From IMG/VR virus record IMGVR_UViG_2541047679_000003: DNA of 35,960 bases; one strand, 5' to 3'. How positions within the stretch are numbered: position 1 is the stretch's first letter; the number at the start of each line of letters is the position of its first letter. Under the pieces are notes generated by a model. It was not told the DNA's origin and did not search any database. It saw only the letters and a program-made list of their open reading frames with translations. This DNA comes from a virus. Taxonomy: Duplodnaviria; Heunggongvirae; Uroviricota; Caudoviricetes. Both the position numbers and the translations under genes were made by a program. Positions 34,220-34,499 of this stretch are shown piece by piece.

Positions 34220-34273
34220 TCTTCCCATTTTGACCCAGTTCTTCCCATAAATATCTCACTTATTCCCTGTCAT
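34220..34273. repeat. terminal direct repeats near the prophage end (candidate transposase-binding sites)
   Basis: cttcccat at 34221 and 34241 and attccctgtcat at 34262, spaced 20-21 bp, within 70 bp of the junction. Confidence 0.45.
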
Positions 34274-34291
34274 TTATCTCAAGTCTAATCA

Positions 34292-34499
34292 TATTGGTGA
34301 CGCACACATCATCCATATCGATAAGCGTGATTGCGCCAATCCCCGTGCGCGCTAGCGCTTCCGCCGCCCAGGAACCGACACCACCGATACCAACCACACA
34401 AATATGCGCGTCAGCAAACAGTTGCAATGCTTTTTCACCATACAGACGCGCTGTGCCACCAAAACGCTGACGCCATGCATCACTAATTACCACAGACAT
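34292..34499 (-). pseudogene. tcdA: tcdA (ygdL/csdL) 5' fragment, interrupted by the prophage
   Basis: Minus-strand ORF begins MSVVISDAWRQRFGGTARLYGEKALQLFADAHICVVGIGGVGSWAAEALARTGIGAITLIDMDDVCVTN (ThiF/MoeB-type Rossmann N-terminus), then runs into element sequence and stops after 10 unrelated codons. Confidence 0.75.

Follow-up and report, generated by a model that had tools for sequence, protein, structure and literature searches.

BcepMu, phiE255 and B3 are transposable phages whose transposase is related to that of Tn552, and transposases of the Tn552 type generate target duplications of 6–7 bp. In phage Mu, the duplication is 5 bp, the transposase is MuA, which has domains of its own, and all genes except the repressor gene are transcribed in one direction. 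In B3-like phages, the early operon is inverted relative to that of Mu and the transposition proteins differ from those of Mu (PMC5977238). For Phi2, a prophage of E. coli EC958 (of the pandemic ST131 lineage), an invertase crossover site named Phi2_5prime has been published (PMC4134206), and the Dam homologue M.EcoMIV, which is poorly expressed and has no assigned motif, has been assigned to the same prophage (PMC4659465).

The host gene concerned here, tcdA, encodes the enzyme responsible for the conversion of t6A into ct6A; in delta-tcdA strains decoding by tRNA-Lys is less efficient (PMC5389693). In the TcdA structure, Gly40 (P-loop), Thr68, Asn69, Arg72 and Lys85 contact ATP, with Arg72 and Lys85 at the phosphates; the dimer buries more than 25% of the residues, and the C-terminal half provides a K+ site and the tRNA-binding surface (PMC4405576).

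We analyzed a stretch of 35,960 nucleotides (hereafter the window; IMG/VR record IMGVR_UViG_2541047679_000003) that contains most of a prophage and the host DNA at its right end. In our reading, which we hold to be almost certainly correct, a BcepMu/B3-type phage of the Phi2/PhiKM kind inserted itself through DDE transposition into the tcdA gene of E. coli HVH 2, and the lysogen is predicted to carry t6A in place of ct6A. The event is an ordinary insertion of a known phage at a new site, and current understanding of such phages and of tcdA is unchanged by it.

The interrupted tcdA gene and its junctions

The features of the window that define the insertion are as follows.

1..34291, no strand assigned: BcepMu/B3-type transposable prophage (EC958 Phi2 type)
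34271..34291, no strand assigned: right terminal inverted repeat, read inward TGAT-N7-GAGATAAATG
34292..34297, no strand assigned: TATTGG, right-hand copy of the target-site duplication (6 bp); the gene strand reads CCAATA here (tcdA nt 203-208)
34260..34499, minus strand: truncated tcdA fusion ORF of 79 aa (TcdA residues 1-69 plus the phage-derived MIRLEINDRE and a stop)
34576..35673, minus strand: host mltA, 365 aa, intact, upstream of tcdA and on the same strand
35882..35958, plus strand: host tRNA-Met (CAT), first gene of the metZWV cluster

The translation of the fusion ORF is MSVVISDAWRQRFGGTARLYGEKALQLFADAHICVVGIGGVGSWAAEALARTGIGAITLIDMDDVCVTN, to which MIRLEINDRE is appended before the stop codon. 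Bases 34499-34292 correspond to tcdA nt 1-208 (codons 1-69 and one further base), and the first 69 residues are identical to those of the full-length TcdA of CFT073 (268 aa); bases 34291-34260 are right-end phage sequence, which supplies the last ten residues and the stop. The Pfam ThiF profile is covered at positions 9-62 of 238 only (54 positions), and the ORF, annotated as EQN00895.1 (G682_03034) in E. coli HVH 2 (4-6943160), is the remnant of a gene and no longer a functional member of the TcdA family. The normal E. coli order at this locus is metZWV-mltA-tcdA-csdE-csdA, and in HVH 2 csdA and csdE lie intact and convergent on the far side of the insertion. A second TcdA fragment of 79 aa known from E. 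coli, SPW56190.1, arises from a frameshift and is distinct from the present fusion.

The right junction was located by megablast of positions 34150-34700 against 5,426 complete E. coli genomes, none of which spans the junction. The host alignment begins at query base 143 (window position 34292) and is 100% identical to tcdA/mltA of CFT073, Nissle and others, and the boundary between element and host falls between 34291, the final A of ...TCTAATCA, and 34292, the junction reading ...TCTAATCA joined to TATTGGTGACGC. On the phage side, positions 33300-34291 (992 bp) were found in 558 complete genomes, mostly at 100% identity and mostly beside ycaL. At ycaL, fliZ, near rayT, aes, yehY and cysE, the sequence ...ATTTATCTCAAGTCTAATCA gives way immediately to unrelated host DNA. 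Since the same terminus recurs with unrelated flanks, position 34291 is the true end of the element rather than a chance break in similarity.

The 79-aa fusion protein has an exact match on scaffold KE698801.1 (2.75 Mb) of E. coli HVH 2 (GCA_000456025.1), and it also occurs in the Logan assembly of SRR800461. The left locus on that scaffold carries phage tail genes, a Gin-like recombinase, a TcdA fragment, csdE and csdA. The fragment is annotated in HVH 2 as a protein of 166 aa, from Met103 to the end (EQN01013.1); of the two possible forms, the 180-aa product predicted from Met89 was absent from the protein collection, in which the Met103 version is present. The left junction lies on KE698801.1 at a distance of about 36 kb from the right one and reads ...GGTATTGG joined to TGATGCGCC..., with the remainder of tcdA and then csdE and csdA coming after it; over a longer span the junction is ...TTGCCGATTGGTATTGG joined to TGATGCGCCGCGCGATAAATG, and immediately around the break ...GATTGGTATTGG joined to TGATGCG. 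The left-hand copy of TATTGG adjoins the left prophage end and is outside the window.

For a reconstruction of the original locus, 1.5 kb of left flank and 1.5 kb of right flank were joined after removal of the element and of the overlapping bases, and the product was compared with the CFT073 locus. When 6 bases are dropped, the intact tcdA locus is rebuilt with 2994/2994 matches, and the reconstruction fails when 4, 5 or 7 bases are dropped. Because the two flanks rebuild exactly one tcdA, the event is a simple insertion with a 6-bp duplication, and no deletion, rearrangement or duplicated fragment is involved. These results bear out several points of the preliminary description, which had recognized an ORF with a ThiF-type N-terminus matching tcdA beside mltA, had placed the junction at a TG...CA element end at 34291, and had proposed a comparison with an uninterrupted tcdA-mltA locus; this comparison now sets the exact junction.

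The two ends of the prophage are not joined by continuous sequence: the left junction lies on a neighbouring contig, a scaffold gap of 1,340 N falls inside the prophage, and the ends are linked through the scaffolding and the matching 6-bp duplication. The window begins directly after this gap, with AAACCAAGGTAATTGAGGA, which is the reverse complement of the Phi2_5prime site (TCCTCAATTACCTT GGTTT...). The prophage continues to the left beyond the window for about 2.06 kb as scaffolded, and for 2.75 kb in the ST131 copy; this portion is missing from the window because the contig broke within the invertible tail-fibre segment. The assembly probably broke there owing to the presence of both orientations of the segment in the culture.

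Two explanations other than insertion into the HVH 2 chromosomal gene were weighed, and both are extremely unlikely. The first is that the junction is an assembly chimera or stems from virion DNA with packaged host flanks, and that the chromosomal tcdA is intact. Transposable phages do package random host DNA at their ends, and the prophage is spread over two contigs with an N gap; however, the invertible tail-fibre segment accounts for the contig break, and both junctions fall at the exact termini known from other genomes, with a matching 6-bp duplication, the length typical of this phage. Furthermore, host flanks of at least 10 kb extend on each side of the prophage within the 2.75-Mb scaffold, and the junction contigs are the same in the NCBI assembly and in the Logan assemblies of two SRA runs (SRR800461 and SRR784980), although all three may derive from one isolate. 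The second holds that the tcdA pieces are a duplicated fragment, with an intact tcdA elsewhere in HVH 2 and ct6A unaffected, for which the odds appear equally slight. The flanks, however, overlap by 6 bp only and make exactly one gene in its mltA-tcdA-csdE-csdA context, with the other half of tcdA lying at the opposite end of the prophage; moreover, tcdA occurs once per chromosome in all 5426 of 5426 complete genomes, from which a second copy in HVH 2 is judged to be absent. The preliminary description had likewise taken the fragment as a disruption and not as a duplicate, and insertion into the single chromosomal tcdA is the reading that we retain.

Termini, gene content and affiliation of the element

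On the left, the element begins with TGAT-N7-GCGATAAATG, and GCGATAAATG recurs at positions 35-44. Positions 12-21 of each end match G(C/A)GATAAATG, as do positions 35-44 of the left end; these repeats are probably transposase-binding sites. The left terminus TGATGCGCC... is common to seven independent sites and the base preceding it varies, which together define the element as 5'-TGAT...ATCA-3'. The 5'-TG...CA-3' termini suggested previously are thus seen to be conserved across insertion sites. At five other complete insertions, the duplications are all 6 bp long (GAAGAA at ycaL, CTGAAA at fliZ, CCCCGG near rayT, GGAAAA at aes and GCAGGG at yehY), so that, with tcdA included, a 6-bp duplication is present at six of the six insertions for which both ends are available. 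A 5-bp duplication had been anticipated; instead, the duplication is TATTGG, and a rebuild with 5 bp fails. We found no statement on the length of the BcepMu target duplication in open papers.

The genes and sites of the prophage that bear on its classification are listed below.

1..26, no strand assigned: Gin-type invertase crossover site of the tail-fibre switch
24196-24960, plus strand: D12-class DNA adenine methylase (Dam-like), between the late and early blocks
25077..25433, minus strand: candidate repressor, HTH_3/CI-like, divergent from the early operon
27340..29109, plus strand: DDE transposase, 589 aa, Pfam rve core only
29120..30286, plus strand: transposition ATPase (MuB analogue), AAA_22/ExeA domains
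30586..31116, plus strand: Gam host-nuclease inhibitor (Pfam)
33318..33767, plus strand: GemA/gp16 family protein (Pfam)
33739..34128, plus strand: Mor middle-gene activator (Pfam Mor, E=1e-43), last gene of the early operon

The remaining content includes a Mu-type portal, a contractile tail and the Gin-type tail-fibre switch. The early operon occupies the plus strand from 25.7 to 34.1 kb and reads toward the right end, and the late genes occupy the minus strand from 1 to 22.6 kb and read toward the left. Because the early operon reads outward, mor ends 163 bp before the terminus, close to the 160 bp estimated in the preliminary description; such a position of mor at the terminus is impossible in Mu itself.

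The transposase was compared by tblastn with 50,697 phage records, 69 of which matched. Its identity is 67.8% to BcepMu, 68.7% to phiE255 and about 56% to B3-type phages of Pseudomonas, over 98-100% of its length. Phage Mu was absent among the 40 listed of the 69 matching records, and in the organism tally of all 69 the matches are mostly phages of Pseudomonas and Burkholderia, with Mu hosts not prominent. No MuA-specific Pfam domain was found in the transposase, in which rve alone is recognized. On these grounds, the element is a BcepMu/B3-type transposable myovirus and not Mu proper. With BcepMu, phiE255 and B3 it shares the transposase (68% and 56% identity, rve only), the TG...CA ends and the inverted early operon, and with BcepMu also the contractile tail; unlike these phages, it has an enterobacterial host and a Gin-type invertible tail-fibre module.

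The element resembles Mu in its short duplication, its insertional knock-outs, its Mor, GemA, Gam and portal homologues, its TG...CA termini and its many insertion sites, which are scattered over tcdA, ycaL, fliZ, the vicinity of rayT, aes, yehY, cysE, the vicinity of pepN and elsewhere. It differs from Mu in its rve/Tn552-like transposase and in the divergence of its early and late blocks. There is virtually no chance that it is a classical phage of the Mu/D108 type, with MuA and a 5-bp duplication, since the features just listed that speak for such a phage are set against a 6-bp duplication at every insertion with both ends available, the lack of MuA-specific domains, an inverted early operon, and a set of 40 listed matches from which Mu is absent and in which BcepMu, phiE255 and B3 are present. 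The term "Mu-type" used in the preliminary description therefore stands in the broad sense (a transposable phage, or saltovirus, with TG...CA termini and Mor) and falls in the sense of Mu proper. Annotators should expect duplications of 6 bp rather than 5 bp, and an outward-reading early operon, for this BcepMu-type group in Enterobacteriaceae.

The closest relatives are found within E. coli. Positions 1-34291 of the window are 100.000% identical, without gaps, to the ycaL prophage of ST131 strain 4/1-1, and 100% identical over 14 kb to PhiKM (PQ738613.1), which comes from a uropathogenic strain. The element also has in common with Phi2 the crossover site at the start of the window and the Dam-like methylase. 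The existence of PhiKM as an isolated phage record suggests that the phage is active; our literature searches turned up no usable paper on PhiKM.

Imperfect direct repeats are present in two structural genes: repeats of about 290 bp that are 92% identical in the tape-measure gene (window 6323-6875) and of about 250 bp that are 85% identical in the tail-fibre gene (window 177-593). The length of the tape-measure protein differs among copies of the phage, from 822 to 1070 aa.

The chemistry of integration is extrapolated here from the phage family. In the BcepMu/B3-type insertion that we favour, the rve-core transposase, aided by the AAA+ ATPase, would link the element (5'-TGAT...ATCA-3') by its 3'-OH ends to the target, attacking the target phosphates at a 6-bp stagger, and subsequent gap repair would double TATTGG. 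The expected products are a stub of 79 aa, extending from the P-loop region to Asn69 and ending in 10 phage residues, and a separated 3' fragment; neither would be able to form the ATP site or the dimer, and tRNA position 37 would accordingly be left with t6A instead of ct6A.

Predicted consequence for TcdA and ct6A

The insertion follows nt 208 of the 807-nt tcdA, and the last native residue of the N-terminal stub is the strictly conserved Asn69. The stub is missing the ATP contacts Arg72 and Lys85, the interface of the dimer and the half of the protein that binds tRNA, and the downstream 3' fragment is without the P-loop. The earlier claim that the prophage splits tcdA and leaves the lysogen with no functional TcdA agrees with this arrangement, in which the halves are separated and the stub retains residues 1-69 only. 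Given what the stub is missing, the published genetics and structure of TcdA argue strongly that ct6A has been lost in HVH 2.

Laboratory delta-tcdA (csdL/ygdL) mutants offer the closest comparison: in these strains, TcdA function is lost and the ANN-reading tRNAs carry t6A, not ct6A (PMC5389693). Unlike those mutants, the HVH 2 allele is a natural insertion in a clinical isolate, and its loss of function is predicted. HVH 2 could therefore serve as a ready, natural tcdA-null ExPEC strain for ct6A studies.

It is conceivable, though very unlikely, that the knock-out was selected in the clinical isolate, for example if altered decoding of ANN codons were helpful in the host or under stress. If this were true, HVH 2 would provide a natural model for the poorly understood role of ct6A in bacteria. 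The sole hint of selection is the rarity of the allele, tcdA being intact in 5426/5426 complete genomes, and purifying selection would account for this no less well.

Several unrelated assemblies contain tcdA split into pieces of 101 and 166 aa by different 1-bp deletions near nt 234, 293, 294 and 295, most of which fall within short stretches of C or G; one of these assemblies has many other split genes. Sequencing error is likely to lie behind at least some of these splits, and real recurrent frameshifts of tcdA may be among them. We considered them as a possible recurrent inactivation of tcdA and set this aside, as several occur in error-prone assemblies.

Distribution of the phage and lineage of the host

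In the 5,426 complete E. coli genomes, tcdA is contiguous and present in one copy in every case (5,427 places in total, the one extra being on a plasmid), and none of the 5,426 has this prophage in tcdA. The HVH 2 allele is a rare natural tcdA null. The right end of the phage, by comparison, is present in 533-558 of the 5,426 genomes, or about 10%.

HVH 2 is a B2 strain. The best complete matches to its 10-kb host flank are EcPF14 and strain 9, both at 100% and both with an annotated intact tcdA, and the 40 best matches to this flank include no strain of ST131. The Phi2 prophage of ST131 sits at the 5' end of ycaL, whereas the present copy sits in tcdA of a host whose relatives are not ST131. 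An ST131 host in which the tcdA prophage would be a second, intragenomic copy was considered and is disfavoured by the absence of ST131 among those 40 best matches; infection across lineages is more likely. A phage showing zero differences from the ST131 copy has therefore reached another lineage of B2 and settled at a new site, as is expected of an active transposable phage. Thus, the Phi2 phage of ST131 evidently moves between lineages and can hit core genes.

Some copies at other sites show peculiarities of annotation or structure. In ST131 (42327-43109 of the locus from NZ_CP023844.1, and about 500 other complete genomes), the prophage lies in the first codons of ycaL, where the GAAGAA duplication spans codons 1-3, and the RefSeq ycaL CDS starts inside the right end of the phage, giving a phage-host fusion start. 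At the fliZ insertion of NZ_CP032261.1 (AR_0067), RefSeq calls the downstream fliZ fragment "site-specific integrase, incomplete", a quirk that could mislead calls of prophage boundaries. A degraded copy beside cysE (750-16400 of the locus from NZ_CP189493.1) is an example of prophage decay: it has a truncated transposase joined to part of the portal, it lacks its left end, and an rhsC fragment follows. In one of the ycaL-inserted copies, an IS66-family element lies inside the baseplate V gene (5839-8255 of that locus).
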